DNA from: Schmidtea nova
Taxonomy: Eukaryota
Length of the DNA: 64,000 nt
Reading direction: 5' to 3'
Assembly (NCBI GenBank): GCA_044892505.1
Contig: CM097882.1
Span: 442,742,001-442,806,000, forward strand
This document shows, one piece after another, positions 521 through 58,560 of the stretch. Position numbers and translations under genes: made by a program. The notes under the pieces were generated by a model that saw only the letters and a program-made list of their open reading frames with translations, did not search any database and was not told the DNA's origin. The stretch's first letter is position 1, and every line of letters starts with the position of its first letter.

Positions 521-575
521 ACAATGGGACAATCATTGCCTAATCTTAATTTAAACTTTAAATCTTCTTGTTGTA

Positions 576-4214: not shown

Positions 4215-4279
4215 GCTCAAACATCACTGGTTTGAACTCTTATAGTAAAAATGAACCAAATCACTATAGTAAAATTATC

Positions 4280-4662: not shown

Positions 4663-4694
4663 ACAATTTAATAAAAATAAAATTTAGTATAAAA

Positions 4695-5081: not shown

Positions 5082-5483
5082 ATATATTGTTATTTCAATA
5101 AATTTATTTCATTGTATTAATGTCTTTTATTATTATTATTTAATGAATATTATTATTTGCAAACTAACAAAGTTAACAAAGACTAGATAAAGTCGACAAT
5201 GACGTCAGAGGTCATGAACTCACATGTCTTTATGAATTCACATGGAAACTGACATGACATCATATGTTATATTGACACACATACTAGTATTATAAACACG
5301 TCAGTGTAATAACCATAAAGAAATATATGTGTGCGTATATTTCTCTCACCTAAAACGTATTTGATTGGCCGGTAAATAACCGTTGAAATATTTTAGTTAT
5401 ATACACTATCTTTTCATTTTTCATCACTTTTTAACAACCAATTTTACTATTGCATTCAATTTAATTAAAATCTCTCAATCAAC

Positions 5484-5966
5484 ATGCTGAATAATATTAA
5501 AAATATAACAAAGAAGAATGTCGCCGCCATGGGTAATTTTATTTTTTATTTTATTATATTATCTTTAAATTATTTCAATTTTCAGCAGCTTCGAATGATT
5601 CCAAGTTGAAGTATGAAGCCCCAGTAAATATTGTTTTAGGGCAAAATGGTATTTATTTTTATTTTAAATATATTTTTTAAAATTTAAAATTTTAGAAATT
5701 CGACAAGTTAAATCAAATTTATTCAGACCGATAGACCAACGCGGACGCATTTTTCCCGCTGATATTGATGCCGAATATACTAATGGTAATTTATTATTTA
5801 ATATTATATATTGTTATTTTAGAAATTATTTTAGAAAATAATGACGAATGTAGAAAATCGTCGAAACAATTTAATAATAATGATGAAGATATGCCAAAGA
5901 ATTCGGAGGAAATATATAATATTTCGGATGATGATGATATTTTGAATGAAAATGAATCTGATAAAT
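5484..5966 (+). CDS. Hidden spliced gene of unknown function: exons 5484-5532, 5586-5648, 5696-5785, 5823-5966 (3' end unresolved)
   Basis: Three AT-rich GT-AG introns (53, 47, 37 nt), all phase 1. The spliced frame is open for 115 codons (MLNNIKNITKKNVAAMAASNDSKLKYEAPVNIVLGQNEIRQVKSNLFRPIDQRGRIFPADIDAEYTNEIILENNDEC...ESDK), and a strong GTAAGT donor follows at 5967. Confidence 0.75.
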
Positions 5967-6714
5967 GTAAGTTTTTATTCTATTTTTATAGCATTTTGAA
6001 ATACCTTTTTAATTTTATAATATATAATTAATAATTTTATAATATGTAATAAATGATTTTCTTAATATTAATAATAATAATTTTACTANNNNNNNNNNNN
6101 NNNNNNNNNNNNNNNNNNNNNNNNNNNNNNNNNNNNNNNNNNNNNNNNNNNNNNNNNNNNNNNNNNNNNNNNNNNNNNNNNNNNNNNNNNNNNNNNNNNN
6201 NNNNNNNNNNNNNNNNNNNNNNNNNNNNNNNNNNNNNNNNNNNNNNNNNNNNNNNNNNNNNNNNNNNNNNNNNNNNNNNNNNNNNNNNNNNNNNNNNNNN
6301 NNNNNNNNNNNNNNNNNNNNNNNNNNNNNNNNNNNNNNNNNNNNNNNNNNNNNNNNNNNNNNNNNNNNNNNNNNNNNNNNNNNNNNNNNNNNNNNNNNNN
6401 NNNAAATAATTTATGATATTATTTTAATAATTTTAAACTATTTAAGATATTTCAAGACATATCATAGTAAATTCGTTACTATAATATTTCTTCAAATATT
6501 TTAAACTTACTATTTCAAGTTATTTTTATAATAATAATAATAATTTACGTTATCTCACGATGAAATCGAGATAATGTACAAATATTTTATAATACTATTT
6601 TAATTCAATTTTAATTGTATAATTTTAATTTTATATTCTATTTTAATAATAATAATAAACATTTTATAATTTTCTCCTGTATATTCAGGCTCTCTATACC
6701 CTAAATATTGCAAC

Positions 6715-9700: not shown

Positions 9701-10662
9701 CGAATACTCAGTTAAGAGCAAACTCTACCAATAAACTCGATAAAAATTATTTTAAACTCAATAATAATAGCCTATATGGTAAATCCGTCGAAAATCTGAA
9801 AAAACGGATGAATTTGAGATTATGTAATTCATCTGAAAAGATGATTATATATGCTTCAAAGCCGTCTTTCAGAAAGTCCATCAAAATTGATGACGATCTG
9901 ATTGCAGCACATCTGAATAAAGATTTAATATGCTTAGATAGACCTAGTTATATCGGTCAAACGGTACTAGATCTATCTAAGCTGCGGATGTATCAACTGC
10001 AATATATTGAATTGCAGAAATATAGGGACCTCTTTGATTGTAAGATAGGAATTGTCGCTGGCGACACTGACTCGTTCTTTCTTGAGGTTAGACACTGTAA
10101 ACTTGATGTTCTCTTACCAGCTATGATTTCTGATGATCTTTTAGATACATCAAACTATGATCCAGACCATCCATTATATTCACGACGTCTCGACTCTGTT
10201 ATAGGGAAATTTAAGGATGAAAGTAAAGGTCATAGATATGAGGAATGGGTTTTCTTGCGTCCTAAATGTTATAGTCTTCTTGGTGATGCTGAATATAACA
10301 AAGCCAAAGGGATTACACTTGGCGAGACTGAAATAAAACATCAATCTTATCTTGACTGCTATCTAAATGACCGGATAATAACTGTTCCTCAAACGCGTAT
10401 AGGAACTAAAAATCACCAGCTTTATACGATAAAAAATACAAAAATAGCTCTTAGCAATAATGACGACAAGCGCGAATGGGTGGGGAGAAATGCAAGTCTC
10501 GCATTTGGTCATTATTTAGGAATCAATGCTAGAACCTATGACGATAACATTCCACCGAATCAATTACCGGATGAATTACCAAGTCAAATCAATGTGTCAA
10601 ATAACTATACCGATTATCCGTACGATTTCGGTGAATGGGCTGATCCCTTTGAAAGAACTTAA
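6715..10662 (+). CDS. polB: Protein-primed family B DNA polymerase (pPolB), intact, 1315 aa
   Basis: Exo motifs YADFES, HNLKGYD, YLKLDV; polymerase motifs YIDINNLYG, KLNNNSLYGK, GDTDS; also GIRGG, RPKCYS, KAKG. Carries a Cys/His-rich EndoVII-like segment (CYLC..RDHDH..GAACNICN). Confidence 0.97.
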   Translation: MSGRHSTQCHKLMTVYYRQKFNGIDYYICPKCETSQSLPYSDFYSKHHEHLTQFFKSKKLIFKKCKNQSSSSIKVSTEKSSSVKISSNNVSVDNSSKNKLLNNLLNNSDVQIININNNNNNNIKKRPADKIKIIAPKKYKPEVIIISDDEEIINQIGGSIDIDDEPVVEKDLRGSRRSLTFNVESHNINQIAVTEKISVRLNKEIIKMGNVKIQFALNIEFEKDGVFKNEFLSTKAEIFSDNFLIESIRKLNNKIENFTQRGSGWIVNKIMEIHFILTKISTMNRLSGHGHFETPSPLKNKRAIINVKNSDDLCFIYSVLAITKYNLIVNNHSSASSYVPYLNDLVFDPLKDCPMKLCNIPKFENNNPGLAINVLSYNPKVIRNNNIDIEDDDYVPHHPHLEIIHRTKLNHLNPIYLLLLEDKGIFHYTAVINLQRLMNSSINSTVTNRIQSIWCPRCLNGFRIQETFDKHFNLCKNNQIGATLYSLPKNKYLEFKDYSKTVTPPFVIYADFESILPGDDRYHQKHLPISAGLLLLNNLNNSKSYYEFIGLECVLEFLKKVEEIAVTIVLPYYDLFGNTPLGPLSFAEQEAFRTCSNCYLCKKPIRNRVRDHDHFSGRYLGAACNICNISRRIRKHLPVIFHNLKGYDLHHILKYGLSDCSSWELNIIPTTTEKFISLIAHIDKLAVRFIDSYQFVSESLGNAVKTLSVFPLTSSVFTGSIMDCKGIFPFNFATSLEVLESTLELPPIWAKVSEADYLRAQQIWTENNCLNLLDYMKVYLKLDVFLLADYFQQFRAKSIAHNGLDPLNFYGIPGMSWASALMTLKEPIELLQDMEMYNFYEGGIRGGLTFVNKKYVKTDDDTELLYIDINNLYGWALSQNLPFSDFRWVHNDLDNILTECMSTDIDNLSYGYTMEVDIIVPENMHVFLDDFPVAPEKMYPPGSKVDKLMLTHYPKYNYVIHWRLLKMFVSLGVQVVKIHRAIRFKQSKIFKAYIDTNTQLRANSTNKLDKNYFKLNNNSLYGKSVENLKKRMNLRLCNSSEKMIIYASKPSFRKSIKIDDDLIAAHLNKDLICLDRPSYIGQTVLDLSKLRMYQLQYIELQKYRDLFDCKIGIVAGDTDSFFLEVRHCKLDVLLPAMISDDLLDTSNYDPDHPLYSRRLDSVIGKFKDESKGHRYEEWVFLRPKCYSLLGDAEYNKAKGITLGETEIKHQSYLDCYLNDRIITVPQTRIGTKNHQLYTIKNTKIALSNNDDKREWVGRNASLAFGHYLGINARTYDDNIPPNQLPDELPSQINVSNNYTDYPYDFGEWADPFERT

Positions 10663-18321: not shown

Positions 18322-19280
18322 AGAACGCGCGTTTCACGCGCGTTCAATGCGTACTGTGATTTGTCTTATACAACAAGGAAGAAGAACGCGCGTTTCACGC
18401 GCGTTCAATGAGTACAGTAATTTGTCTTAAACACACACACAAGTTATCTGTGTACAAAAAATTATTATTATTAAAAGTTATATTTCATTAGTCTTTGTTT
18501 CTTTGCATTCACTTTGCAAAGTCTTTGTTAATATGCACGTGCATTGCAATGTCTTTGTTAATATTTGTTTTTGTTGATGAGTCATAACAATGAGTCATAC
18601 CAATGAGTCATACCGATGAGTCATGTAGATGAGTCATACTGATGAGTCATACTGATGAGTCATACCAATGAGTCATACTGACGAGTCATGTAGATGAGTC
18701 ATCCCAATGAGTCATCCAAATAAATCATACCGATGAGTCATTAAGAAAACAATTTAATCTTCAATGGTATGACCATTTTACTCACCCTTCAATTACCTTT
18801 TGTTTGATGTAAGGATTAAAAAGGTTGAAGGTTTTTGACCCTTTCAAGGTTCAGGACCCTCCATACATCTTCGAAAGTATGACCATCATACTTACCTCTC
18901 AATTACCTTTTGTTTGATATATAACTTGTAAGGATTGTAAAATGTTAAAGGTTTTTGACCCATTGAAGGTTAAAGACCCTCCATAGACCTTCGTGGGTAT
19001 GACAATTGGATAAACCTCTCCAAGACCTTTCGAATAATACCCTTGTTTGAAGGTTAGACCTTATTTGACCTTTGGAAATTTAAAATTTGAATTGAGTCAT
19101 CGATGACGTCATAAAATTCAAATTTGAAATGAGTCATCGATGACGTAATCGATGAGTCATAACAAAGAAAAAATGAGTCATCGGGGGGGGCGGGGGATAT
19201 GGGTGACTCGTCGATGACGTCATTGTCTTTGTTTAACGATGAGTCATGGAGCACACTTCTGTCTACTATATATATATACT
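18322..19280. repeat. Candidate Polinton terminal inverted repeat arm ending ...CTACTATATATATATACT
   Basis: Terminus reads 5'-AGTATATATATATAGTAGAC on the minus strand (AG..CT type end). Includes TGAGTCA and TGACGTCA arrays, a G-run and internal duplications. The partner arm is not in the window. Confidence 0.5.
18578..18740. repeat. 13-bp-period minisatellite, 13 units, 11 with a perfect TGAGTCA (AP-1) site
   Basis: Counted directly: TGAGTCA starts at 18578, 18591, 18604 and so on to 18734. Confidence 0.9.
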
Positions 19281-21753: not shown

Positions 21754-23244
21754 TTATTTTTTGAATTTTAACTTCCGGAAGTCACGAGAAATATAGGATA
21801 GGTACATGATGAGTCCACTTATTGCTATAATAATACCTACAACAAAAAAGGTAATATTGTAAGACAAAGTCATGTCATATATCCATCCAGAAATCGGTGG
21901 ACCGATAAAAACTCCTATTCCTTGATTGACAAGAATTACACCTAATGTCGCATCTAAATTTTTCAAACCGAAAAGGTCAATCAGTATGACAGATGAAAGG
22001 GTCATGACAGGTCCACTCATAGTTCCATATATGAAATTGTATATAATCATAAAAATATAAGTATTCATTATCCAACTGAAGCTTAAAACTAATCCACTCA
22101 AAACAAGTGTCATATTATACAGATGAAATCGGTTTACACCTCTAAATGTTGCCAAGTACCCAAATCCTAACCTTCCACATAAATTTCCAATACCAATTGA
22201 GGCAATTAAATGACTTGCTTTGCTGGTTGAAATTCCAGATAGTAAAGCTCTATCTTTAGTAAACATATAGGGGGTATCGAATCCAATACTTGTTAAAAAA
22301 TTTGAAATAATGAATAATATAAAAACCGGATTTTTCAATAATTGTATAATTGATAGACTTGCATTTTCTTCAGGCTTTCTATCGACTTCATCTTCTAAGC
22401 ATTTATCAGTTTCATTTATCTCTTCTTCAGAAATATTAACGGAAGCAGGATTTACAATGTCTTGTTCACTGTGTTTTCCCTGAGGTTCCCGATTTTTAAA
22501 GGTCAGTGAAGAAAGTATCAAAGTGTATAATATCAGACTAAGGATCAACATGGTGAATTGCCATCCACGTTTTTCAATTAAAAATTCAATGAATGGACTA
22601 AAAATAAACGTTCCCAACCCCGATCCACAGATTGCGATTCCAAGAGCAAGAGATCTTTTCTTTTCGAACCAAACATTGACAATAATTATGGACGGCAAAT
22701 ACATTAACCCAAAACCTATAGAACTTAATACTGAACTAGACAATATTAAAACCCATAATTTATCGCAGAAATAAGGTATGGTGAAACCTAGGGCCCCAAG
22801 AAAGGCACCAGCAATTGCGACAGATCTATAACTAAATTTACTACATAAGTAACTTGATACGGGTGCCATGCAACATGTTATTGCAATGATCAATGACCCC
22901 ATGAAACCCACATTAGACCGGGATATATTGAAATATTTAATGAACTCCGGTGTAAAAACTCCATAGGAAAATAAAACTCCATCCACAACTAAATTGCTAA
23001 AAAAACAAGCAACTACCACAACCCAACCCCATCCTTGATCAGGTGGATGAATCTTTTCATTTTTCTTAAGCAGTTTCTCTTCTGTCTGTGTTTCTACTTG
23101 ATTTTTATCCCTACCCTCAAGGATTTCATTGATAATCATTATCTTACAACATTCAACCTCTTGTTTTATATCTTGATTTACATCTATTTTTTCTAAGTTA
23201 TTTTCAGTAATTTTTATAGTGCAATTTTTTTCATTAGACATCAT
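21754..23244 (-). CDS. Monocarboxylate transporter (SLC16/MFS), single exon, 496 aa
   Basis: Signature PPDQGWGWVVVVACF, WFEKKRSLALGI, two bundles of hydrophobic helices with a polar central loop, and GRLGFG. Confidence 0.93.
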   Translation of the reverse strand: MMSNEKNCTIKITENNLEKIDVNQDIKQEVECCKIMIINEILEGRDKNQVETQTEEKLLKKNEKIHPPDQGWGWVVVVACFFSNLVVDGVLFSYGVFTPEFIKYFNISRSNVGFMGSLIIAITCCMAPVSSYLCSKFSYRSVAIAGAFLGALGFTIPYFCDKLWVLILSSSVLSSIGFGLMYLPSIIIVNVWFEKKRSLALGIAICGSGLGTFIFSPFIEFLIEKRGWQFTMLILSLILYTLILSSLTFKNREPQGKHSEQDIVNPASVNISEEEINETDKCLEDEVDRKPEENASLSIIQLLKNPVFILFIISNFLTSIGFDTPYMFTKDRALLSGISTSKASHLIASIGIGNLCGRLGFGYLATFRGVNRFHLYNMTLVLSGLVLSFSWIMNTYIFMIIYNFIYGTMSGPVMTLSSVILIDLFGLKNLDATLGVILVNQGIGVFIGPPISGWIYDMTLSYNITFFVVGIIIAISGLIMYLSYISRDFRKLKFKK

Positions 23245-23318
23245 TGCTTATATAATTTAATAAAAAATTTAATATTTAAACTAATATTTAAATTAATATT
23301 TCCGCAGATATTATTCCC

Positions 23319-26099: not shown

Positions 26100-29000
26100 T
26101 TATAGTTCGCTGATGTCATGTATTTTCGAAATACACAATTTCCTAAACTCTTTTGGTAAGAGTATTCTTGGTGTATTTTCATTGCTGACATCGTACCAAA
26201 GTTCATTGATTTTCTCTAATTTCAGGCTGTGTTTTAGGGGGAGTTCTTTTAAGGTTTCTGATTGTTTGTTTTTAATTTTTTCGTTTTCAAATAGTTCGCC
26301 AAATTCTAGTGCGTTTATGTCTGTTTCTATTCTTGACAGAGTATCTGCTGCGATATTTGCGGCGCCAGCGACATAATTGATTGTGCAATTAAATTGTGAT
26401 GTATAATTTAATTGTCTTATTTGTCGTGGTGATGGGTTTTTCATTTGTATCGCGTTTGTTAACGGTTTGTGGTCCGTATATATTTTGAAGTTTCTTGCTT
26501 CCAGAAAGTGTTGGAAGTGTTTGATGGCTTCATGTATCGCGAGTAATTCTCGGTCAAAGGTTGAGTACCGTGTTTGATGTGTTTTTAGTTTTTTAGAGAA
26601 AAACCCGATTGGCTGTTTGCTGTATTTGTTATCTTGATATAAGGTTGCGCCCATTGCATATCCAGAGCAGTCTGTTGCTAGGTTGTAGTCTAGTTCTGGA
26701 TTTGGATATCCGAGTAATGTTGCTTGGGATAAGCTTGTTTTTGCTTTTTCAAACTGTTTGGTAGTTTGTTCGGTCCAGTTTATTTTATTATTTCTTCTTG
26801 TTTTGATCAGGTCGTTTAATGGAGCTAACAATTCACTGCAGTTAGGGACGTACGCGTGGTAAAAGTTTACCATCCCCAAAAATCGTCTTAACTCTCTGTT
26901 TGTGTTCGGTAATTTGAACTCTTGTATCGTGCTTATTTTCTTGTCTATTGGCTTCGTGCCTTTTTCGTCCTGTGTGTGTCCCAGAAAATTAATCTCTTTT
27001 TTCAAAAATTCGCATTTTTGAATGTTTATTTTGAGATTTGCGGAGTTCAGCGTTTCAAACACCTTTTCAATGTCTTTTAAGTGAGTAGTTTTGTTTGGGC
27101 TTGCTATGAGGATGTCGTCCAAATAAGCTATTGTGTTCTGGTTATTTTTCAAAGTCTTGTCCATAAATCGTTGAAATGTTGCAGCTGCGTTTCGCAAACC
27201 AAATGGCATTCTGTTGTACTAGAACATGCCGATTGGTGGTACGATTGGTGTTTTTTTAATGTCTTCGTTCCTGATGGGTATTTGGTGGTAAGCCTTCTGT
27301 AAATCTATTTTCGAGAAGAGTTTTGCTCCTTTTAATCTGTTTATTATGTCTCTGATGATAGGCAGCGGGTAGTTGTCTGGTTCCGTGATTTTGTTGAGCA
27401 TTCGGTAGTCGCCACAAGCTCTCCATTCCCCGTTTGCCTTTTGTTTGAGCATGAGTGCTGAGGACCAATCAGAGTTCGAGTGAGTTACTATTTTGTTTTC
27501 TAGTAACTCCTTGAAAATTTCGTTCGTAATTTTTGTTTTTTGTGGATCTAGTTGTCTCACCTTTGCATGCACTGGGTTTCCGTTTGTTATGATTGCATGT
27601 TCGGTGCAGTGATCCGCGTTTTTGTCAAAGGTTACTGGTTCGGTGAGTTTTTCGAATTTTCCCAGTAGTTTATTTATTTCTGGGTCATGATTCAATTTTG
27701 TTTTTGTTTATTGTTAGGTGAACCCGTTTGGATAACACCGATGTCTATTTTTGGTTTTCCTCCATTGCTTGTGTTGTGCTGTGGTGTTGTAGTATTAGTA
27801 ATATTTTCTATTATTTGTTTGTTTTTACAATCCACTAGGAGGTTGTAATTTGTTAGGAAATCTGCTCCTATTATTGCTTGTTGGACCTCAGCTATGGTGA
27901 ATGTCCAGTTGTAGTTCTTTTTATTTATGTTTAAATTTATTTTTTGTTGCCCGAAAGTTTTTATGTTTGTGCCTTTAGCTGCTGTTAATGGTTTTTCTGT
28001 TTTGTTGACACTTTTATACATAGAATGGGGCAGTAGTGAGGTCACCAAGCCGGTGTCTTTTAAAAAATCTATGTTGTTTGTGTGCACCCAAAATGTGTTG
28101 TTTTTGTCACCTGATGTGGGTGCTATCATTGGTGACCTTATTGGTTTCCCTGCTCTGTTTTATTGAATTCGCAGGGTTGTGTGCATTTAAATGCTTTTTC
28201 ACCGAATTTGTTGTGGAAATAGCATAGGTTTTTGTTTAGGAATGTTTCTTGAATCTCTTTCTGGATTTCTGTTTCGGTAATTGTTGCATCGATTTGGGGA
28301 GTTTGATCGATTTCTGTAATTGTTGTTTGGTGATTGACTGCGGCTGTAGTTTTGTCTGTTGTATTCTAGGGGTTGATTGTAGCATTGTCTGTTTTGACCG
28401 TTGGATGTTTGGTCTCTGTTGTGGTTGTATCTGTTGTAATTATCGTATGATTGTGTTGAGTTAAAGTTTGGTTTGTTACAACGTTCGTTTATTTCGGCTA
28501 GTTCTGTTTTGATTTGTTTGTTTTCGACTATTATTTCGTCGAATTGGCCGATAAGAGTGTTTAGTAGGTTGTTCATGTTTTCGTTTTGTTCGTTATTTTT
28601 GTTGTATGAAGGGTTATTGTAGTTAGTTTTGTTTTTGTTGTGGTTTTGGGTGCTGCATATAGTCGAATAAATTTCCTCGTTGATTTTATCCGCTATGTCG
28701 GCAAGCGTTTCAACATCAGCGTTGTTGCTGGCTGCCAGAATCCTCCTGATTTCTGGTGGCATTGCTCGCATGAAAAATTCTTTTACTAGTTCGTTTGAAC
28801 CCGAATTTGTGATATTTGGTTGCAAATATTCTAGTTTTTGTTTTCATTGCCTGAGGAAATCAATGGGTTTTTTGTCACCTAATTGAGGCAAGATTCGAGC
28901 ATTTGCCGTCTGTTTATTTTATTTTTGATTGTAAGGATCTTACACAGTTTCTTAAAGGGGTCGTCATCCTTAGAAATTTCTTCAATCTGATCCGCTATTT

Positions 29001-29630
29001 CATTTAGTTTGTTACTGGGTAGTGCAGCTATGATTTTGGAGCACAGAGTTTTTGTGGATTTTATACCTGAAAGGGTTAGTGTTAATTTGGCAAATTCCAG
29101 CCATTTTTGTGGAGTGCCATTTTCGTCAGTGAAGTAGTTTGGTAGGTTGGGTTTCGGGTTAATTACAGAGTTTATGGTGTGTGTGTTTTCGGGGTTGTAA
29201 TAGTAGTTGTTGTTTTGGTGTTGGGATTGTGCATTTTCGTTGTCAATGGGTGTTTGGGTAATATTTGTTTGGTTTAGTTGGTTGGTTGCCATCGCTTTTA
29301 TTTATGTGTTGCTTGTTGATGCGAAAAAAATCGAGTTTGTTTCAAGGATATGGCTTACTGTGTTCAGCCAAAAGATCTCACCTTCCTTTATAGTTCTATA
29401 CTAACTATTCTAAAAGGAAAAGGTGATTTGAGAAAAATTTCGTCGAGTGTGTGTGTGTGTGTGTTGACTTCTGACACCAGTTGTAAATGCGATATTTACT
29501 TGTTTCGAATGGCTTTAGAGTAAGATATTACGGATATGTACAAGGAGAAATGTAAGCGCCCGAGAGAGTCAGCCCGATTATTGTGGGGACACTCGGGGTG
29601 TATGCTATGTAATGCGGGAAGGAAATAACA
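26100..29630 (-). mobile_element. Decayed Ty3/gypsy retrotransposon: 5' LTR, PBS, gag, protease, RT, RNase H; integrase and 3' LTR missing
   Basis: Gag in two frames (28879-29292, 28199-28825); protease FLKDTG; RT CGDYRMLN, FSKIDLQKAYHQI, MPFGLRNA, YLDD; RNase H ATDCS, RELLAI, YTDHKPL. Several frameshifts; the sequence breaks at the start of the integrase zinc finger (KIHDISEL). Confidence 0.92.
29467..29479 (-). other. Primer-binding site TGGTGTCAGAAGT (tRNA-Leu type)
   Basis: Lies 2 nt downstream of a TGTTATTT...TTTACA LTR candidate (29482-29630). The sequence matches the recalled tRNA-Leu 3' end complement TGGTGTCAGAAGTGGGAT over 13 nt. Confidence 0.7.
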
Positions 29631-34877: not shown

Positions 34878-37758
34878 TAGAGTTTCTGGTTTCCCGACTT
34901 TTTTTAATTTTCGGGATTCGGGAATTCTCATTTTTGATAAAAATATATTTCTCGAGAATCGGGATGATTTTTAAAATTCCAGAGAATTATCGGGATATCC
35001 CGAATAAAAATCCTTTTTAAAAACTACACGAAATAAGATAAATTTGAACAAATAAATGGTATTTCGGTATTGCTTTTACTGAAAACAAAATTTATACATT
35101 AAATAATTCATTAAAAATAAATAAAAAAAATATTCATACATATATAACCATATTTTTTTTTATAAATACAATTTATTGAAAAAAAATGAAAATAAAAAAT
35201 AAAGGAAGCAATAATAACATTAAAAACTACTGTCCCAACTAAGACAATAAAGGAACTAACAATTTTAATAAAACAGATATATTATTTTTCATGTTTTTGA
35301 AAATAATTTTTCAAAAAACAAAGGCAATTTAAATGTTTATCTGTCAAACGTCCTCTTAGTTTGGATGCAAAGTTATTTGAAACAGAAAAGTTTCTCTCAT
35401 TTTCTGTTGAAATAGGTTTTATAGTCATAATTGCTTCCTTTAGTTTTTTAAAATTTTTGGTTATATTTCCAGTTGCTTCATAAATACTTATTTCTTTGGA
35501 AAGTAAACGATATTCGCCATCGCTCACAATTTTGCTTGGTGCCAGTGTTTTTGAAATAGATTCTTCCAATTGCTTGCTCATATTACATATTTTTATATTA
35601 GAATTATTATTATTTTCTTTAGTAATTGTAATACAATTTTCGTCATCATTTTCTATTACCATATCCACATCTTTATCAGTGTTTTTAAACAATCGTTTTA
35701 AAATCAATTTGGCTCTCTTCATTACTTCACTTTTAGAACTCAATTTAAAAAAATTATCCTCATCCTCATGTTGATCTTCAGGAATACAGAAAGTATTATG
35801 ATCCAGTAGAAATTTAAGCAGTGATACTAACGTAACGTCTCTCCTTTTTGATATTTGTGTTTTTATTTCTTTTAAAAGAGATGAACTTATTGCAGTATTG
35901 TTATTTTTAAGAGTTGTAAATAAAAATTTCAGTACACCTTCAGCAGATAATAAATTATTATCACGACGACTGAGTGCTTCAACAGATACTCTAGCTGGTT
36001 TCAAAGCATTTAATATATCATAAGCTAGCACTTCATCAATAGTAGGATTCCATAAATGCTCTGAATTTAAATCTTTTAAAACTTTCATTATTGGACTTTT
36101 AATTCTTAAAAACCTTTCAATCATTATTTCAATTGAATTCCATCGTGTCTTCACGTCTAATATACATTGTAATTCTTGTTTCTCTTTTTCTTTTACGTAA
36201 TTTTGCAGTAAAGCATTTCTTACAGGCGAGTTTTTAAACATTTTAACGATAGTTCCTATTTTTTTATAATAGTAAATTTTAAATTAAATTTAGTAGCTGC
36301 AGTTGATCTACTATCAGTATCACCAATACCATATTGCCAGTCATCTTCATCTCCTGATGAATCGGAGCAACCACTATCACTATTTTGGACACTAGAGCTA
36401 AAACCTTTTTGATAAAATGTTGACATAACAGCTAAATGCACTGCATGATTATAACATAATTGTTGATATGCTGGTGAAAGTTTACCGAATTTTATCATCA
36501 CACTCGCACCATCACTTGTAGTAGCAACTTTATCAGTTGAAAAATTTAAACCGAATGATTTCAAATTTAAATCAACCAATTCAATGGCTTTTTCGGCAGG
36601 ATCCATCTATACGAATTAAGCCCAAATTTTCAGATTCTCCGTCATGATAATATAATTGGATATTCATATATCTACTGTTTTTGAAACTTGTCCAATCATC
36701 GATTGACTGCGAGAATTTTTTATTATTGGATTTCATCAAATTTATTTTTCAATTATATCTAACTTTTTTTCATAATATTTATATATAAAACTGGATACAT
36801 AAAACTCGATGGCTTTTAAGGTATTTCTAATAAATTCGCTTTTTGTAATAGCATTAATTGAAAACCCGTCTTGGGCAGCAAGTTTTGAAACGACATATTC
36901 AATATTGTGTTTTTTGTTTACAGTAAAATATGTTTCTAATGCTTGTTTTTTATTTGATTCAAAATTCGGTTTTTTTGTTTCCTCCAATCTACGTTTCATC
37001 CGATGCTCCCCTCCACCCAAATGCCTATGTAATCCACTAGTTGACGACGCTTTGCATCCTATTGCTTTAATACAAAATTTACAAGTAGCTGTATCGCTAT
37101 TATCAGTTCTTTTGAAATAATTCCATATATTTTTACTTAAATATTCGTTTTCATTCTGTATAATCTAGAAGGTATTTAAAAATAAAGTACAAAATAGATT
37201 TTTTTAATATTTTAACAATACTAACTTCATTTCCATCCATATATAATTATTTCATTATGTTATAATAATTTTATATTGAAATGTATAGACTGGATCGATG
37301 ATTATATTTTTATAATATTTTAATCGAATTGAAATCAGTTTTTCAGCCACAATAATTTAATAATATTCTAGAAACAAATATAAATTCAATGTATACGAAA
37401 ATCAAAATGGAACACAAAATATATTACTTGCAAATAAATTGTAGTTTTTTCTGAAATTAGCACAATGACAATTAACAACTTACAATTTTTTGTTATATAT
37501 TACTTTTTCCCAGCTGAAATTTAAGTTTGACAGAAAGTCAAATAAAATGCGACTCGAAAATCCAAAAGTTAAGTTGAATTATTTCCAAACAATTTTTACA
37601 GCGGTTGCTTAAATTTCGATTTTTGAATACGAAATATATTTCTTTCCCGAGAAAAATAATATTTCCCGAAATATAGTTTAAAAAAAATCTCGGGAAAAGG
37701 GAAAAACAAATAAATTAGTTTTCTCGAAAATTCCCGAGAGAGAATTCTTGAGACTGCA
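34878..37758 (-). mobile_element. Decayed hAT transposon with BED-finger transposase (about 35282-37150, frameshifted)
   Basis: BED finger IWNYF..ATCKFC..STSGLHRHL; also LCYNHAVHLAV, LDVKTRWNS and ISTENERNFS. Imperfect ends with TTCCCG/CGGGAA subterminal repeats; no TSD, so the boundaries are approximate. Confidence 0.8.
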
Positions 37759-39381: not shown

Positions 39382-41352
39382 CGGAGCGGGACATTTCAGT
39401 CTCGCCGTTTCAGTCCTGGTCAAATCAGTCCCGTCTGCTTCAATCCCAACCAATGCAAATAAATTACTTCAAATAACATTTAATGACATAAAAAACAGTC
39501 AGAGGTTATACATGTTGATAAAAACTCTCAAAGACATCTACATAAAAACTCTCAAAGTATTAGCATAAAAAATCAATGCAAATAGATAACTTTTAATAAC
39601 ATTTAATTACATAATAACATTTAATGACATAATATGACATATATGTTGATAAAAACTCTCAAATACATCTAGATGAAAACTTTCAAAGTTATTGCATAAT
39701 GAAATTGTGCGCCAATCCTCGAAGATACTCTACGATGTCACGTTTGTTGTAGGTGGACACTAAGTTGTAAATTCTATCATCAGCTTGTATGTACTTGCGT
39801 CTCTTTGCCGGTGCTGGAGTGCCTGCCACATACGCCTCGTAGACGACATCTCGCCCCTTCTGGACGCATCGTAGCCCATCAATAAAGCGCCAAATTGAGG
39901 GATGAGAAATGTCGAGCTCCGTCTGAAGTCTTCGATGTGCAGCCTCCGCGTGAATGTTTGTGCGGTCCTGGTTATTTAGAACGCGATCATAGACATTCCA
40001 CAATGGGGGCGGAAAGGAAGGAGCACGTCGTATGCGATTGCGTCCAAAGCGTCTACCAAGGTAACTATCTTCGAGCCAATTGAGGATGGGCTGTAGTTCA
40101 TCATGAAGTTCTTCTGTGAGTGTATCGAAAGCGACATCTAGGTTGACGATGGGAACGAATGCGATAGCAATGATCATCCGGGCCTGCAGTGAAAACATCG
40201 TATCATTATCGTAACAATTAAGCAAACCTGCAGCACGTAAATGTACTCTAAAGTTCTTCATTAAGTGGAACAGGCATCCTCGGAGAACAGCTGAAGGGAA
40301 ATTAGCACGGACTGCGTTTTTAACAGCCATTTCTAAGTCAAGTGAGATGAACGACGGATTGAATTGAGGCCAGAGTTCTTTAATGATTCTGAACAACCTA
40401 TCGTATGTAACTTGCTGCTTGTTCCCAAGGAGGGCATACAGCACAGGGAAGACATATCTACCACATTTAGCCAACACCACGAAGACCTGCTCAAAGAGTG
40501 GTGGAGCTAAACTGAACGTGCCGTCTATGAACACTTCATCCATCTGCTGACTCCAGCGTATATGGCTTTCACGTCCAAATAGAATTATTCGGTTAACATC
40601 ATCCTGTTCTGTGTTACCTAGTACAAAGCGTTCCTGCTCTCCTGGAACTGACTCGTACATTCGATATTCATCGGGAATTATTAGTTGGGTTAAGTTTGTT
40701 GGATTTGCTGGAGCCATGGCCAATCGATTTCTGATCCTTTGAATAACCTTCCTGTTTGCATCTTTATTTGGCATCTGACCCATCGTTGCTAGATCGATGC
40801 CCTGGATGACATGGTTTATGATTTGTGCAGGTTGTTCTATTGTTTCATCGGCTCGCCTCTTTATCGATGTTTTAACTTTAACCACCTCAACTCGAGCAGC
40901 ATTGCTTCCGTGACTGTGACTCCCACTTCTATTGACTATGGCATCGTTAAAATCAGTGTGAATCCGGGCTTTGCATTGTCCCTGATTATCGCATCTCCAG
41001 AACTTCCTTTCTCCGTTTGCGCTCATTTTGCAGAAACTGAAAGGATGCCCTTCATCTGCCAACTTTTTACGTCCTCGTTGAGACTTCAAATCATCAGTCA
41101 TGACGGTTAGTTTAGTTAAAATTTAACGTTTTGCGAATTAATAAATGTCCTAATTCCTAATATTTACTAATACTAATGTTTTTGTTTACATTTGTCTAAG
41201 CGTGTTTTCGTTTTCTTTTCGTCACAATGTTTCATCCAAAATTATGCCTTAGGACTTAGGACTTAAACGGTCAGTATTGAAACAGTCGAGACTGATTTGA
41301 CGAGGACTAAATCGGCGGGACTAAAACGGCGGGACTGAATAGTCACGGACCG
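39382..41352 (-). mobile_element. Complete Mutator-like (MULE) transposon, 1971 bp
   Basis: Imperfect TIRs CGGAGCGGGAC.. / ..GTCACGGACCG with TCAGTCCCG-type repeats, and a perfect 9-bp TSD CAGAAGAGC (39373-39381 and 41353-41361). Confidence 0.93.
39689..41101 (-). CDS. FLYWCH-MULE DDE transposase, intact, 470 aa
   Basis: FLYWCH (FWRCD..CKARIHT..HSH), FIDGTF (D), SLDLE (D), CLFH, RTNIHAE (E). Confidence 0.92.
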   Translation of the reverse strand: MTDDLKSQRGRKKLADEGHPFSFCKMSANGERKFWRCDNQGQCKARIHTDFNDAIVNRSGSHSHGSNAARVEVVKVKTSIKRRADETIEQPAQIINHVIQGIDLATMGQMPNKDANRKVIQRIRNRLAMAPANPTNLTQLIIPDEYRMYESVPGEQERFVLGNTEQDDVNRIILFGRESHIRWSQQMDEVFIDGTFSLAPPLFEQVFVVLAKCGRYVFPVLYALLGNKQQVTYDRLFRIIKELWPQFNPSFISLDLEMAVKNAVRANFPSAVLRGCLFHLMKNFRVHLRAAGLLNCYDNDTMFSLQARMIIAIAFVPIVNLDVAFDTLTEELHDELQPILNWLEDSYLGRRFGRNRIRRAPSFPPPLWNVYDRVLNNQDRTNIHAEAAHRRLQTELDISHPSIWRFIDGLRCVQKGRDVVYEAYVAGTPAPAKRRKYIQADDRIYNLVSTYNKRDIVEYLRGLAHNFIMQ

Positions 41353-43266
41353 CAGAAGAGCTGTGCGGCCACGACTACTCTTCTCTAAATTCTATTTAAT
41401 GGTTTCTCTCGTGTCGATAGAAGACACTTAATGTTCTGACCATACGTCTTACTGGTCACAAATTTCGACGATTTAGTAGCTGTTTTACTTTAAAATAATT
41501 CAGATAAAAATTACGAAACTTGAGTATCTAAACACTAAAGTTGACAAAATATTTGCTTCGGCTCTGTATAAATATTTTATTCAAACTAAAAAAAACTCGA
41601 AAAATTATAATTCTGAGTAATTCATAAAATATTTCTGAATGCTAAAATTTTGTGGAACCTTTATAATATTAACACGGAGCTATAGGGCTCCGTTGAGCAC
41701 ACATTGAAAATCATTGGCCTAAATAATCGAATCGATTTGTTAATGAAATTGGTTCAGCATCGATGTCATTTGTCTTGCAATATTCATTTTTGGAATTTTG
41801 TTGAACTTTGTTGAAATTATCATCGATGTTTTCTTCGTGTTAAAAATTAACTACATTCAGCGCTTGGAAGTAATATTTTGTCGACTGGAGCAAACTTTTT
41901 AAAAAGGCACCTTTTATGGTCAAGAAGTTTAAAAACACACATTTTAAAGGGATAATATATATTATATATATTTTCAATTTATTTATAATTATGTACATAA
42001 AATAAAATTTTAATTTTGGACCTTAATTTCCGCAAAATCGTTTATTAAAGCGTTATAAAAGACTCAACAATGGTGCCTTCAATGGAAATCAATGATAAAC
42101 TCATTAATATTCCTTGTCCCATTGATGATCTTAAATAATTTTTAATTATTTTCAATATAAAAAAACTGTATTCCACAGAAGCTACCAATACAGGTAAAGT
42201 TAGAAAAATCTTTTAAAAAATGCCTAAATTTGGAATTATTGTAATTATATTGTTCTTGCCTAAATAATTAAAAATTTATATTGGATACATTTTAGATGAG
42301 AATAAGGAAGTAAAATTTATTATTTTTTCACAAATTTCAATACCATCAGTTAATATTAACTTGAAATCCTTACAATATTATAATATTTACAATTTATCTT
42401 TATATTTTAAATATTATATATAAATTCGTAATATTTAGTATGTTTTCCATTTGTTCAAATCTTCGTTGATTGATGTAATAGTAGTGTCAAAAATGAAATT
42501 AAAAATATTATTTTATAGTTATAGTGCGGATCTAAAATGGGATAATCTGCAGATTTGTATTTAAATTGTCTATTTTTAAGACTTATTCCAACAGTTTGAA
42601 TATCTTGAAAATGTCCTTCAATTTACATAGTTTCAGCTATTCTTTTTGATTCATCAACGTACTGTTGTTGGTTTCGGATTGGGTTAAAACAAAAATAGTA
42701 AATTAAACTAATAATTATTTTTAAACGCTCTAGGGATTCCTCCATCCAAAACCTCACATAAAATGCTTACCTATCACACGAGCACCCTCGATCATTTCCC
42801 TGTAATAATCGAGTTGGAAATGTGCAAGGTGTTTGAACAATGATGGGCAGGTGAGCTCTATTGCTAAAACTACTCCCCATTTATGTTCACGGGTTCGTCT
42901 CGCTGCCGATAGAAGGACTTACGCTTTAACTTTAATCTATCCGCATCCATTATCTTTCCTCTCCATGTTTCTTTAGCCCCCTTCTTTACAATATATTTCA
43001 ACTTTCAACTTCTCTTTCAGCCCCCTTCTTTACAATATCAACAAATAATCCTTAATCAATTACAATTTATTATCTCTTTAATGTTTCTATTGTTTATTAG
43101 ATTTATGTTAATCTTATTGTTAATTCTAATGTATAGTTAATTTATTCTATATTTTCCTTTAAATTATTTTAAATTTTCAATAAATCACATTATTTTCTAT
43201 ACTCTACCATAAAATAAATACAAACAAAAATTATTTAATAAGCAAAATAACTAAATCACAGAAGTT

Positions 43267-43857
43267 CTATTCAAAGTATTTGGTAATGTCTTCATCCGAT
43301 ATTGCAAAGTTCATTGTTAGATCAATCTCGGGAATTTCTTTTGATTGTTGAGCCAATTGCTGGAGCACTTGCTTCTTCCAGCGACGCTGACGTGCGCCCA
43401 TCTTACTCTTCTTTTTCTTCTTGACTTCTGGATTGGTCGTGTTCTTTGGTATACTGGCTGCTATTGTTGCTTGAACCTGAGAGGTTTCCTCGGTGTTCGT
43501 TCCCTTCGTGCATCCTGCTTTCTCGTCAGCCCAATGCTGATAAGTGATTGGTCGAATGAGCTGACTGAGCTCTTGAGTTAAATACGACGCCGTTACAGAT
43601 TTCAGACATTTCTTTAATTCCATCTTCGTCGCGTCCAATTCCATTTGGATCTCTTCGTTTGCTCGCTGTGAGCGTTGATTTTTTACAATTTGGGTTTTCA
43701 TCTGCTCTGGACTGAACCAGCTTTTCTTCAGGTTGGAGATTATGCCATCGGCTTCTTTTATTTTTTCCGATTTCCGTAACATTTCTTTGTCCAGGCTGCG
43801 AATTATCCTCCATGCTTTATCTAATTCGGCTTGATTAGTTGCTGTGTTGGCTGACAT
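43267..43857 (-). CDS. Orphan coiled-coil protein with a basic NLS-like tract, 196 aa
   Basis: ATG-started ORF that is less AT-rich than its flanks, with heptad-like N-terminal half and KKKKKSKMGARQRRWKK. No family recognised. Confidence 0.55.
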   Translation of the reverse strand: MSANTATNQAELDKAWRIIRSLDKEMLRKSEKIKEADGIISNLKKSWFSPEQMKTQIVKNQRSQRANEEIQMELDATKMELKKCLKSVTASYLTQELSQLIRPITYQHWADEKAGCTKGTNTEETSQVQATIAASIPKNTTNPEVKKKKKSKMGARQRRWKKQVLQQLAQQSKEIPEIDLTMNFAISDEDITKYFE

Positions 43858-43985
43858 GTTCTAAAATTCAAAATGGTTTATTAACATGAAATTGGCAGTC
43901 TTGATTTGAACGATTCTCATACTTTTGACAATCATTAATTGCGAATTCAGGAAGAGAAAATGATTTACCTATTACACTTTCAACA

Positions 43986-44123
43986 CTGTCGCTATGTACA
44001 GCGATCAGATACATTTATTTCATAATGCATTTTATTTAGTTACGCCTGTGCTATATACAGCAATCAGGATAAGAAAATTATAAGAATAAACTAAGGTCCA
44101 CTGCCCTATGTACAGGGTTCAGG
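43986..44123. repeat. Three spaced hairpins with loop AT(G/A)TAC
   Basis: Stems TCGCT/AGCGA, TGCT/AGCA and CCCT/AGGG, each inside an outer CTG/CAG pair. Confidence 0.75.
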
Positions 44124-44584
44124 ATAAGCAATTATATTTAATTATTTATGTGGAATGTTTGAACCTATAGCCTATTGCTGCTATGTTACTTGCGTAGTAG
44201 ATCACTACGTTATTAGAGTTATCGATTTTTATGTTGTTATTAAAATTATACTTTGTACAAATTCTTAACCGTGTATCTGCCGCTCTATGCCCACAAACCC
44301 CAGATGTGACAATCGAAAAATATACGCTAACACTCTGTGAATCTCAAGGTAAAATCAGGTTAATAAAATCGCAATTATATCCGTCTCAAACTAAAATCAA
44401 AACTCAACTTAACTATAAACTCAAAAATTTTAAATCGATTATAAAATAAAACTTCAACTGGCTATACTATCCAGTGAAAAATAAGGTTAGAAATCAAAAA
44501 TAAAATTCCTACCCTCGTCACGGCGCTTTACACCGGTCGGACGGCCTAACTGTACGGAGCAGTCGTTTCTACTCGGCACAGTAT

Positions 44585-44873
44585 GCCTCCATTTCACCGA
44601 TTGCACGGTGATCGGAGCCCCTTAAATCATACGTAATTTTCTACTATAACTACGGTATATAAATAATATATATTCGCCTCCTTCCACTGATTTCACAGTG
44701 GAAGAAGCTCGACTCAAAAATTTATTCATAAAAATATACTTCAACCTAATTGTTAATATCACAACATAATGTTGCCTCCTTCCACCGATTACACGATGGA
44801 AGAAGCTCAATAAAAGATATATAATAGATATATAAAGTCGTCTCCTACCATTGATTGCACAGTGGAAGAAGCT
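44585..44873. repeat. Four spaced 34-nt hairpin repeats (CCTCCTTCCAC(C/T)G-ATT(G/T/A)CA-C(A/G)GTGGAAGAAGCT type)
   Basis: Copies at 44585, 44676, 44774 and 44840, separated by unrelated AT-rich spacers. Confidence 0.75.
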
Positions 44874-47800
44874 TGATTTAATTCTATATTCAAAAGAATG
44901 CAACATATTCAGAAAAGGTTTATTAATTTCATAATTACAATTATAATGGCTAATGACAGAATTTCATCATAAAATTACAAAAAATAAAAATATAATAAAC
45001 AATAACCCATACCTTTGGTTTTCTCACTGAGTCAAAAGTGATATCAAAATTGAATACTTTCAACACTTAAGTAAAAAATCATTAAAACATCTGAATCTGG
45101 ATCAGTATTTATACTGACCAGATCAGTTCATTGACCAATCAGCATCAATCTGATGGTCCTCAATGCAATTCTATTAAAAATAAAATCAATTTTATTAACA
45201 AATATGATTTTCATTTTCTTGTTTTAATTTACCGATTTTTTATTAATTCTTCTTCTTTTTTACTTATTTATTTCGCTTTCTTATTATTTAAATATAATTA
45301 AATATCATTTTTCTTTAACACTTTTACATTTTCCATTTACTTTCTTCCAATTTTTGATATTAAATTAATATTCTTTATTACATTTTAATTCGTTTTTTCT
45401 GAAATTCTGGTAATTATTTTAATTTTAATTTATTCTTATTTATTTCTTATTATTCCTATTATTTATGTTACATGTGGACTAAATGGTGGATCCAACAGTA
45501 CAATAAATTTTCATTTGATCAATAACCACTTAAAAAATATAAAACTTCTTTTGCATGCTAAAATCTATTACATGTAAATTCAATATTATTATTTGCATAA
45601 TTCAATTATTGTTTCTTAAATCATTTTTAAAATTTGCACAAAAAATCACGGTGTATAAGGTGTAATAACCAAATTTTTTGTTTTTCTGTGCGCCTAATAG
45701 CCCGAAAAATACAGTACTATTTTTCTACTGACCTTCAATTGGTCCATTTAAACAACGAATATTTTTTTAATTTGTTAAAATTAATTTCTATATTCTTTTG
45801 GTTATTTTATAAATTTGTACAAATAATTTTTATTATTTTTAATTCATTTCCTAATCGTTTTAATAAAAATATAGATAATATAATTGAAATATTTTCTCAT
45901 TAATTCTATTTTAAATTGTAATATTATATTAAAACCTACTTTTTAAGTTAATTCTAAATGATATGCTTAATTTTATTTTATGCTTTTCGAATTACTTGGT
46001 TATTTCTCTATTGTTTCAATGATAATAAAAGGCTAATTACATCGTTACACAGCAAACATAATCTATACTTTCATCAATCATTCAGAGAATATGGATGATT
46101 TTTTTTCGTTTTAAACTACACTTTAAATAACTAGATGAATCTTCTGTATTATTTTTTACATATTTTAATTATACACTCTTAAAAGGAATATCATGATTCT
46201 ACTAAATATTGTTTTATAAAATGCAAATACCCAAATATCTATTTTGTTAATAACACTGGTGATCTTTGGCACTGAATATTAAATTATAAGGTTTATTTCA
46301 CGAATAAGATTATAATTCTTAACATACGAATACGGATGAAGTACTAATATTAAAGATTAGGTTTCATTGTTATCCTATTTTTCTTTTTACAATCGCAATA
46401 AGGAAAAAGTAATGCATAGAAGTTTGATATTTACAATTCTAATTTATATTCTTATTGATTTTTATAATAAAAAGAGTTATACGATTCTTACACTATTTTG
46501 TCTTGATCGAATGTAAAAATTAAGTTAAATGTATTCTGAAACTAATTAGCACAAATCGCATATAAAATATATCAAAAGACTGCAATCACATTATTCACTG
46601 GCCTACAATAGTTGTCTATTACTACAGATCAAGGCCTAGTAGCAGTAAAGCTAAATATCGATTTCTCTTATTTATGATGACGGTGTCACGCTTAGCTGAA
46701 CTGATAAGTTTATTCAATTTGGTGGGTTGTTAGTAAAAAACACATTTTTTACATTTTTTACTAGAGTCCTAGTAGACAGGTGAGTCTTTTTGCCACGACT
46801 TTGTTTCGGCTGCAGTCAGATAGAAATTTTCTATCTTACTGCGTAGATTTCTTGTTATCTATCTGAGTGTGTGTTAGATGGTTATTTCTTTACTTTTTCT
46901 AGCGTCTGTGTGCGCTCTTTTCTTATTCGTAGTTTCGTGTCTGCGTGCAAGCTTTATTGTGGTTTTTATGAAAAGAATTGTAGTTTAGTTTTTTTTGGAG
47001 GTAATTATAAGTTTGTTTAATAGAATTAATTGTTTATTGTATGTTAATAAATTAAAAATCATATTTTGATTAAATTGAATTTGAAACGAAATTGTGAAAT
47101 TTTTAATTATTTCAAATTGTTTATTCGAATCAATTTGGTTTTAATTTTATTTTGGAAAATTTTATTTTCATTAAATTATATGTGATTTTTCTTGATTTGA
47201 ATTAAATTTGAATGATTTTTTAAACTGTATACAAGAAGAATTTAGATATTGAAATAAAGTTATTATTAAATTAATATCTTAGTCTTATTTTTCTGAATGC
47301 TCAAATTGTTGAACAGACTGAGTTCAATTGAGTTTTTGTATAAATATTGCAGTAACGTAGCACGTAAGAACGCGCACGAAGTGAACTTAAATTGAAAAAT
47401 AAGAAATGCCAAATGAACAGAATTAATCAAAGAACCCCTAACATTTTATTAAAGACGTTTACAAGTTAAACTGAAACCTAATAGCACGAAAAAAACACAA
47501 CTATTACATAAAAACATTTAATTACAGCAATTAACTGCAAATGAGAAAAATTTCGAACATTCAATTAATAAATTATTTAATTTTTATAAAATTTTTATAG
47601 TCCTGGATTCTAGCTGTTTCCCTTATACATACACGTCAAAAATGTCCCTCATAATAGACTTAATGTCTCAGATTGCACCGCAGAAAATGACGAGTCTACT
47701 TGAAATGACCTTTAAATTTGATCTCAAAATAAGATATGATTGTGTAATCACTTTCGATATAGGAAAAACGGTCATTATACAAATCAGTTTATGCTACGTG

Positions 47801-57689: not shown

Positions 57690-58560
57690 CTAGAGGACAT
57701 TTGTATTGAAGTCGAACTTGTGATCGGTTTTCGAAGGCTGTCTACCTTCAAAGTCACTGGTACCAACCCATTCGAAAACCAAGAAGAGCAAACCAGAATT
57801 GCAAATTTTTTCCCGTACTACACACACAGAAATATCATCGGAATCGCAAGAAACTTCAAATTTCAAAAAAAACTTTAACTCTACTTGCAGAGAGAAATCG
57901 ATTGAAGATCCAATTAATGATCAAATCCATGAAACAACAAATCCCCAATAACAAACGGCAATCCAAGAACTCCCTAACGGACAAATCACCGAAACCTCCC
58001 AGGACCCTCTCCTGGAAGACTCAGACGGTGACTCAAATTTTAAAACTATCATTGAAAATACCTACATACATCTTTAATCCACTAATGGATTTATACTTAG
58101 ACGAATCAGGCATCAACAAAAGAGAGACAATATTCAAGAATTATGACCTAGCAGACAATGCATACGAAGACATAAAATATGATATAGAAGTCCGTTTCCA
58201 TGAAAACTTAGACAAACAAAAGCAAATTGAAGAAGCAGCCAATAATAAAATCGAAAATACTGAAGAAACAAATCAAAAATATCCAAAAAGAAAAAGAAAT
58301 AAGAAATCAAAGAATAAAAAAATGTCCTAGACATAGAACCGCCTTTGAAAAAAGTGTTCCATGACTGATCAAAAATATCAGACAAGAACATAACCAAGAG
58401 CGCAAAATCAAAAAAGAGAAGTCAAATCAAAACTAACAAAGAAAAAGAGATAATTACGGGATTACTCTATAATATACCGTACTTGAACTCGGATACCTAG
58501 TGGTAAGGGATATCCCGCTAGCGGGAAGTTTAAACATGTATTAAAAATATGATTTCAGTA
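57690..58560 (+). pseudogene. Possible degraded retroelement coding remnant (integrase C-terminal-like)
   Basis: A-rich purine-biased ORF fragments and an ELGYLVVRDIP segment weakly resembling the GPY/F region. Confidence 0.25.

Follow-up and report, generated by a model that had tools for sequence, protein, structure and literature searches.

In HIV-1 (Rev/RRE) and HTLV (Rex/RxRE), a regulator made from spliced RNA is paired with a response element in the unspliced RNA. The C. elegans retrotransposon Cer1 makes its CERV protein from a spliced mRNA, and CERV is needed for export of the unspliced genomic RNA (PMC10309623). Neighbouring hairpins that share one conserved loop are also described in retroelement leaders: the paired GACG hairpins SL-C and SL-D of MuLV act in RNA dimerisation and, like the lentiviral DIS, have a self-complementary core, and in HIV-1 the DIS is a 6-nt GC-rich palindrome with at most one A-U pair, located downstream of the PBS and outside the LTR (sections of PMC5874298 on these elements). 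Palindromic dimer signals are reported for Ty1 (PMC4974528, in the part on dimerisation). In LTRs themselves, R and U5 are usually more conserved than U3, and conservation in long R regions has been linked to stem-loops (PMC3601003, as far as its account of LTR structure goes).

We analysed a stretch of 64,000 nt from Schmidtea nova (the window), in which an initial annotation had described three hairpins with different, perfectly paired stems, a common loop AT(G/A)TAC and an outer CTG..CAG. All of these are present in the sequence (Table 1), and we found in addition that the hairpins lie in a 2835-bp element together with a second hairpin array and a 196-codon ORF. The three copies read CTG-TCGCT-ATGTAC-AGCGA-T-CAG, CTG-TGCT-ATATAC-AGCA-AT-CAG and CTG-CCCT-ATGTAC-AGGG-TT-CAG, and thus follow one plan, with a 3-bp CTG/CAG outer stem, a bulge of 1-2 nt, an inner stem of 4-5 bp and the loop. 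On the minus strand the loop is GUA(C/U)AU, in which a G.U closure around a UAYA tetraloop is possible, and the bulges are A, AU and AA. The annotated starts (43986, 44045 and 44101) hold, with 44045 valid if one more C-G pair is counted and 44046 otherwise; the trailing GATA that had been ascribed to all three follows copies 2 and 3, but in copy 1 it overlaps the CAG.

This arrangement is well above the chance level. A scan for three hairpins within 150 nt (at least 4 Watson-Crick pairs, at least 2 of them G-C, and 6-nt loops within one mismatch) returned this triplet alone from the 44 qualifying hairpins of the window, and no triplet in any of 100 dinucleotide-shuffled windows. An IUPAC pattern with up to 3 mismatches matched 3 times in the window, compared to a mean of 0.36 (at least 3 matches in 1 of 100 shuffles), and a search of the window with a model of the three copies gave E below 1 only for those three, among 13 matches in all up to E 5. 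The hairpins match no family of Rfam 15, a scan of which yielded nothing at the gathering threshold (best 21.8 bits against 60, with no match over the three hairpins). We also rejected hammerhead and HDV-like ribozymes, which had no Rfam match, and a bacterial promoter or terminator, for which nothing exceeded the chance level. The iron-responsive element has a CAGUGN loop and a C bulge five pairs away; it was set aside given the GUAYAU (or AURUAC) loop found here and the lack of an Rfam match. The double-hairpin pattern was found at 0 loci in viral contigs. It occurred at 17 metagenome loci, which we discarded since all 17 were tandem or satellite-like and had no bulged stem; the best blastn alignment with these loci had an E of 0.022 and fell on the motif itself, while tblastx gave no match.

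Table 1. Positions of the hairpins, of the element that contains them and of associated predicted features (window coordinates).
Feature	Position	Strand	Remarks
Target site duplication GTAC, left copy	42659..42662		From end search
Target site duplication GTAC, right copy	45498..45501		From end search
Repeated element, likely solo LTR	42663..45497	minus (orientation inferred)	2835 bp; TGTTG...CAACA ends, without internal terminal direct repeats
hAT dimerisation-domain remnant	42075..42239	minus	Left flank, insertion target DNA; PF05699 E 2.5e-4, 21.2 bits, just under the 21.4 cut-off
Deepest block, probably conserved U5	42736..42902	minus	Modest fold, z -2.13 on minus against z -0.37; donor-like AG/GTAAGC at 42772
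196-codon ORF	43267..43857	minus	Helices 4-45 and 50-100, disordered middle, basic stretch 146-170, helix 155-174, acidic tail
Acceptor-like TTTTAG	43861..43866	minus	The element's minus strand has 3 TTTTAG; this one lies three bases before the ATG
Relic fourth unit	43945..43961	minus	Repeat flank kept, loop and stem lost; E 1.3 (weak); 58 nt further on
Second donor-like AG/GTAAAT	43963..43970	minus	Predicted; 16 nt past hairpin 1
Hairpin 1	43986..44008	minus	3-bp lower stem, 1-nt bulge, 5-bp upper stem, loop GUACAU (or G.U plus UACA); strand from context only
Hairpin 2	44046..44067	minus	2-nt bulge, 4-bp upper stem, loop GUAUAU; strand from context only
Hairpin 3	44101..44122	minus	2-nt bulge, 4-bp upper stem, loop GUACAU; strand from context only
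GC-rich folded block	44460..44600	minus	z -4.49 on minus against -0.36 on plus
Second array, four hairpins	44586-44624, 44674-44712, 44772-44810, 44838-44876	minus	12-bp stems with G.U pairs, loop U-GNAA-U
Donor-like AG/GTATGG	45007..45014	minus	Predicted; intron would begin at 45012
Putative promoter	45091..45139	minus	Palindrome 45091-45126 with TATAAA 45113-45108 at centre, CCAAT box 45135-45139; consensus match only

The initial annotation had taken preserved pairing as a sign of selection on structure and not of simple duplication. Duplication did occur: the loops are spaced 59 and 55 nt apart, copies 2 and 3 share 10 nt of flank outside the stem, and a decayed fourth unit continues the series. 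Thus, the triplet arose via tandem duplication with a period of 55-59 nt, and what stands of that claim is that the stems changed thereafter with pairing kept. The spacers are as unrelated as had been stated, the two being no more alike than shuffles (equal or higher score in 452 of 2000).

We assessed selection on pairing in several ways, all of them post hoc, as the structure was picked after seeing the sequences, and with n=3 copies whose double changes are all between Watson-Crick pairs. All 15 cells of the inner stems pair, with 2 of the 5 inner pairs changed on both sides and none broken, compared to 13-60% of cells when the partners were slid out of register. When the 6 differences between copies 2 and 3 were placed at random (400,000 trials per setting), all 7 pairs and the two double changes were kept in only 0.24-0.46% of trials. 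In contrast, the pair-shuffle control on the three hairpins was not significant, with the observed values reached in 53 of 500 shuffles. Folding of 43980-44129 gave no significant gain over dinucleotide shuffles on either strand (z -0.89 on minus, 36 of 200; z -1.77 on plus, 11 of 200), although the wider stretch around the triplet folded better on the minus strand (z -2.32, 4 of 200 shuffles) than on the plus strand (z -0.22, 78 of 200). Among the variants listed from the repeat contigs (40 of 646), none falls inside the hairpins. With the random-placement and slid-partner tests and the minus-strand folding of the neighbouring arrays on one side, and the pair-shuffle control and the post hoc choice of structure on the other, we take selection for a single-strand structure as the most probable reading; three copies, however, are too few as proof, and the hairpins by themselves do not fix the strand.

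The same observations bear on a reading without function, in which a 57-nt unit was copied in tandem and template switching, at replication or at reverse transcription, preserved the perfect match of its short inverted repeats. A regular period with a decayed fourth unit would follow directly, and the scarcity of double changes (only two, all between Watson-Crick pairs), the pair-shuffle result and the folding of the array alone agree with it. However, the spacers diverged beyond recognition while loop and bulge stayed, and a bulge would not survive template switching, which also cannot preserve the one-strand G.U pairs of the sister array (below). We regard this reading as quite unlikely.

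Since the element has neither terminal direct repeats nor long inverted repeats at its ends (self-BLAST and repeat search), a solo LTR is its best class, and we consider it probable that 42663-45497 is a solo LTR of an invertebrate retrotransposon. Its TG..CA ends carry a 5-bp inverted end (TGTTG/CAACA), and within the ranges searched no TGT..ACA pair other than 42663/45497 had a target duplication; shuffles gave such a pair with a duplication in 281 of 3000 cases, and one that also had a 5-bp inverted end in 30 of 3000. Insertions of LTR retrotransposons are flanked by target duplications of 4-6 bp, a range into which GTAC falls. LTR ends follow the 7-nt consensus motifs TGTTRNR and YNYAACA (PMC3601003, section on end motifs), and each orientation of the element fits one of them in full. 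The TG..CA ends with a short inverted repeat, the 4-bp target duplication, the TATA-like and AATAAA motifs, one conserved and one variable end, and the many copies are all as described for Ty3/gypsy-like (Metaviridae) solo LTRs in the parts of PMC3601003 used here; in contrast, this element measures 2.8 kb and holds two hairpin arrays and a 196-codon ORF. The internal region is not seen, so no clade can be named for the element. The window contains no visible full-length copy with gag-pol, PBS or PPT, and self-BLAST found no sequence in common between the element and the gypsy remnant at 26100-29301. We rejected TRIM and TR-GAG, as the ends lack two short terminal direct repeats, and a tRNA-bearing LTR, as ARAGORN found 0 genes in the window. 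Inside the element, at 42975-43043, a purine-rich, polypurine-tract-like 18-mer is present in two direct copies on the minus strand.

The insertion appears to have entered a hAT transposon. By eye, hAT flanks on both sides read in one frame, but no match to support this continuity was found among 25 candidates, and no significant alignment to the other hAT-like ORF of the window. The contigs of a separate repeat stop at 42657, and the TGTTG start lies five bases on, at 42663.

Contigs from four DNA-like runs of one study, mapped on 41400-46400, outlined a repetitive zone at about 42000-45570 with the same pattern in 4 of 4 runs. In run X1, summed depth (which is not a copy number) was 13-62 in the right flank and mostly hundreds to tens of thousands inside the element, with 1903-3472 in the ORF bins, 12,893 and 8,023 in the two hairpin bins and 62,696 at 42736-42902. 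In each of the 4 runs, depth in the hairpin bins was 3-5 times that in the ORF bins (again one study, and depth, not copy number), and the element is polar, with the left end deepest and the right end shallow. Among the 15 of 39 contig joints listed, one joint in the first array skips 44003-44091. The deepest block, at about 20 times the depth of the ORF, has diverse loose ends and a stem CAUUUCC/GGAAAUG seemingly kept in variants, by eye; the block may be common to many element families. A GIY-YIG (Penelope) or other endonuclease reading of 42740-42960 was dropped after no Pfam match was found in six frames.

The second array lies on the same element and has four hairpins, in which the N of GNAA is the sole variable loop base and of which the last copy is decayed. 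Its G.U pairs form on the minus strand only, so that minus-strand folds are up to 9 kcal/mol better than plus-strand folds, and 44440-44920 folds on the minus strand with z -4.84 (0 of 100 shuffles). Of its 48 cells, 42 pair, and two pairs show double changes; the covariation score was not significant, being matched by 93 of 500 pair shuffles. According to the contig joints (15 of 39 listed), hairpins of this type occur elsewhere in the genome with other spacers and in other numbers. The pattern of the array was found at 0 loci in viral contigs. The U1A protein recognizes the motif AUUGCAC. We rejected U1A sites here, because AUUGCAC, on the plus strand of the second array, is present in only 2 of the 4 copies.

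Read on the minus strand, the element has an A-rich start, the CCAAT box and TATA palindrome, a donor-like site at 45012, the second array, the GC-rich folded block, the three hairpins, a donor-like site at 43968, TTTTAG and the ORF. The palindrome (36 bp, near-perfect and TATA-centred) folds on both strands (z -2.4, -3.7) and could be a bidirectional promoter. With 18 ATGs between its start and the TATA, the ORF would be translated only from an RNA spliced, or trans-spliced, to the acceptor-like site, and such splicing would remove both arrays. Thus, an intron or outron is the probable place of the hairpins, as judged from the order of these predicted sites, and they would be retained in unspliced RNA only. 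The TTTTAG at 43861-43866, however, failed a stricter filter on T count.

These positions also invite the thought that the hairpins act as a local switch that governs splicing, polyadenylation or ORF translation. They flank the donor-like site at 43968, with the acceptor 120-260 nt further on, each has a branch-point-like CUGA(U) 18-19 nt before a CAG, with both in the stem, and AATAAA occurs between and beside them (44036 and 44019). Such motifs, though, are frequent in AT-rich DNA (15 AATAAA on the element's minus strand), the CAGs have no preceding pyrimidine tract, and CUG/CAG is explained by pairing alone. A switch of this kind seems unlikely to us.

Still less likely, we think, is a role at the DNA level, as enhancer repeats in the U3 of a plus-strand LTR (a long U3 to 45110, a short R and a T-rich U5), to which the ORF would be antisense. 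In its favor, the TATA palindrome is symmetric, AATAAA and then a T-rich tract are found on the plus strand, and the end motifs (PMC3601003, as above) suit either orientation. Yet R/U5 is usually the conserved part of an LTR according to the same source, and here it is the left end that is deepest and the right end that is shallow; moreover, it is the minus strand that bears the ORF and the strand-specific RNA folds, and covarying stems are not expected in a double-stranded site, making this reading a very improbable one.

The ORF is longer than expected by chance, as 196 aa was reached in 0 of 1000 shuffles. Its basic stretch (residues 146-170) has 11 K+R and no D/E; the helices come from a single-sequence structure model with a pTM of 0.24. 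At two short loose ends of diverged copies (43647 and 43780), the frame is open with three synonymous changes, by eye, a weak sign of coding constraint. The protein is otherwise an orphan: there were no relatives among 367 candidates or in 1.84 billion representatives, no Atlas match at 0.9 and none in viral contigs, and Pfam gave matches only below the cut-off. Foldseek with the model (pTM 0.24) gave a best E of 0.98, with SIV Rev at rank 30 (E 3.3), and sequence and fold searches detected no similarity to Rev, Rex, CERV or a known RNA-binding fold.

The first array looks like a site that is recognised by its shape together with its loop, to judge from its invariant loop, bulge position and closing pairs, its compensated stems and its unrelated spacers; a double-stranded DNA site, we infer, would not need such covariation. 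A constant loop and bulge on interchangeable stems, three times over, suggests multivalent binding by one protein. We tentatively favor, at somewhat less than even confidence, the reading that the hairpins are repeated protein-binding signals that would steer unspliced element RNA to export or packaging. Minus-strand transcription would begin around 45085, and splicing to the acceptor at 43861, in cis or in trans, would remove both arrays and produce the mRNA for the 196-aa protein, while the arrays would be kept in unspliced RNA. One protein that reads loop and bulge might then bind the three sites together, and the bound protein would direct the unspliced RNA to nuclear export or packaging. 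The foremost candidate ligand is the element's own basic, probably oligomeric protein, by a Rev- or CERV-like logic, and the next is Gag or a host transport factor. The second, independent array on the same strand, the varied spacers and numbers of its hairpins in other genomic copies, the depth of the hairpins, the 18 ATGs, the acceptor-like site and the long ORF with its basic helix all speak for the binding-signal reading. Against it, the three hairpins alone do not favor the minus strand, and the donor at 43968, if used, would leave the hairpins in an exon. The pair-shuffle controls of both arrays, the lack of detected similarity between the protein and Rev or CERV, and the absence of a visible full-length copy count against it too. 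We had considered the loop change in copy 2 as a sign of the minus strand, but both strands keep a 4-pair run.

That run raises the possibility of RNA-RNA dimerisation, in which the self-complementary GUAC loops would kiss those of a second RNA copy and then pass to an extended duplex, as in a retroviral DIS. All six loop-loop combinations have a run of at least 4 pairs on either strand, homodimers are predicted to be more stable than two monomers, and the same-loop pair of MuLV acts in this way (PMC5874298, on SL-C and SL-D). Nevertheless, such a run occurs in 540 of 3072 random hexamer loops, a duplex is energetically favorable for any hairpin, and the conserved bulge is left unexplained. 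The locus shares with MuLV SL-C/SL-D and the lentiviral DIS the neighbouring hairpins, the one conserved loop, the place in a retroelement leader and the self-complementary core, but differs in having another loop, three copies and a position inside the LTR and not behind the PBS. We rejected a retroviral DIS as such, because the palindrome here is the weak 4-nt GUAC with two A-U pairs, unlike the 6-nt GC-rich rule for HIV-1 (as set out in that part of PMC5874298), and dimerisation in general we rate as improbable.

We return to protein-binding signals, for which the viral and Cer1 systems provide the closest logic. The predicted arrangement here has a small protein from spliced RNA with a basic helix, as in Rev/RRE, Rex/RxRE and CERV (PMC10309623, for the Cer1 part), and structured repeats that would be present only in unspliced RNA. 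In contrast to these systems, the LTR itself would hold both the gene and its putative response element, and, in contrast to Rev/RRE, there are three short separate hairpins and not one large fold. CERV is itself unlike the 196-aa protein, being large and having a C4 loop, and the parts of PMC10309623 that treat it name no RNA element. We would say that the hairpins and ORF may work like Rev/RRE, by analogy only, as homology was searched for and not found. The burro giant gypsy elements of planarians are likewise invertebrate and gypsy-like, with long LTRs, accessory ORFs and AT-rich genomes (PMC6431247, PMC11410931, in their descriptions of these elements); the description in PMC6431247, with which we compared the element by features, includes no LTR-internal ORF or hairpin arrays.

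The three hairpins also recall the TAR of HIV/SIV in the 5' bulge of 1-2 nt, the upper stem of 4-5 bp, the hexaloop, the tandem LTR copies and the basic (here candidate) partner protein. TAR, however, lies at the very 5' end of the transcript and has a U-initiated bulge, whereas these hairpins are ~960-1100 nt behind the predicted start, with bulges A, AU and AA and another loop; it was rejected.

The rest of the window is AT-rich and full of transposon remains. By eye, 555-10662 holds a Polinton/adintovirus-like set with an integrase, a protease, capsid-like ORFs and a polymerase-like frame of 1330 codons, and 35282-37164 holds a hAT-like transposase that is broken and has no Pfam match. There are also broken gypsy-like gag-pol frames at 26100-29301 on the minus strand, an intact-looking MULE transposase with FLYWCH at 39689-41101, and an intronless monocarboxylate-transporter-like gene at 21754-23247, whose best relative is 80% identical. 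A second orphan open frame of 206 codons (57710-58330) has a basic tail at its end and no Pfam match, and 18576-18741 consists of ~13 tandem copies of a 13-mer that contains TGAGTCA, which we take to be an AP-1-like site.

Cis-acting RNA hairpins in retroelement LTRs are known; two arrays and an orphan ORF in one LTR are notable. In the literature covered (mostly open-access), we found no such arrangement of LTR-internal ORF, tandem hairpins and Rev-like protein for invertebrate retrotransposons. How unspliced RNA is marked for export and packaging is largely open in these elements; for Cer1, the protein is known and no RNA element is named in what PMC10309623 says of it. Should the hairpins be neutral, they would be an ordinary repeat inside a transposon. 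A single 2.8-kb unit holds both hairpins and a candidate partner protein, with many natural variants, and so lends itself to direct tests by covariation, binding and reporters. It is a doubtful but possible extension, drawn from the predicted sites and folds, that the LTR is its own complete Rev/RRE-like module, made up of a promoter, an intron that carries both hairpin arrays, and an orphan protein, basic and helical, that binds these arrays. If so, the many-copy solo LTRs could act in trans as a source of the regulator and govern export or packaging for the whole family.
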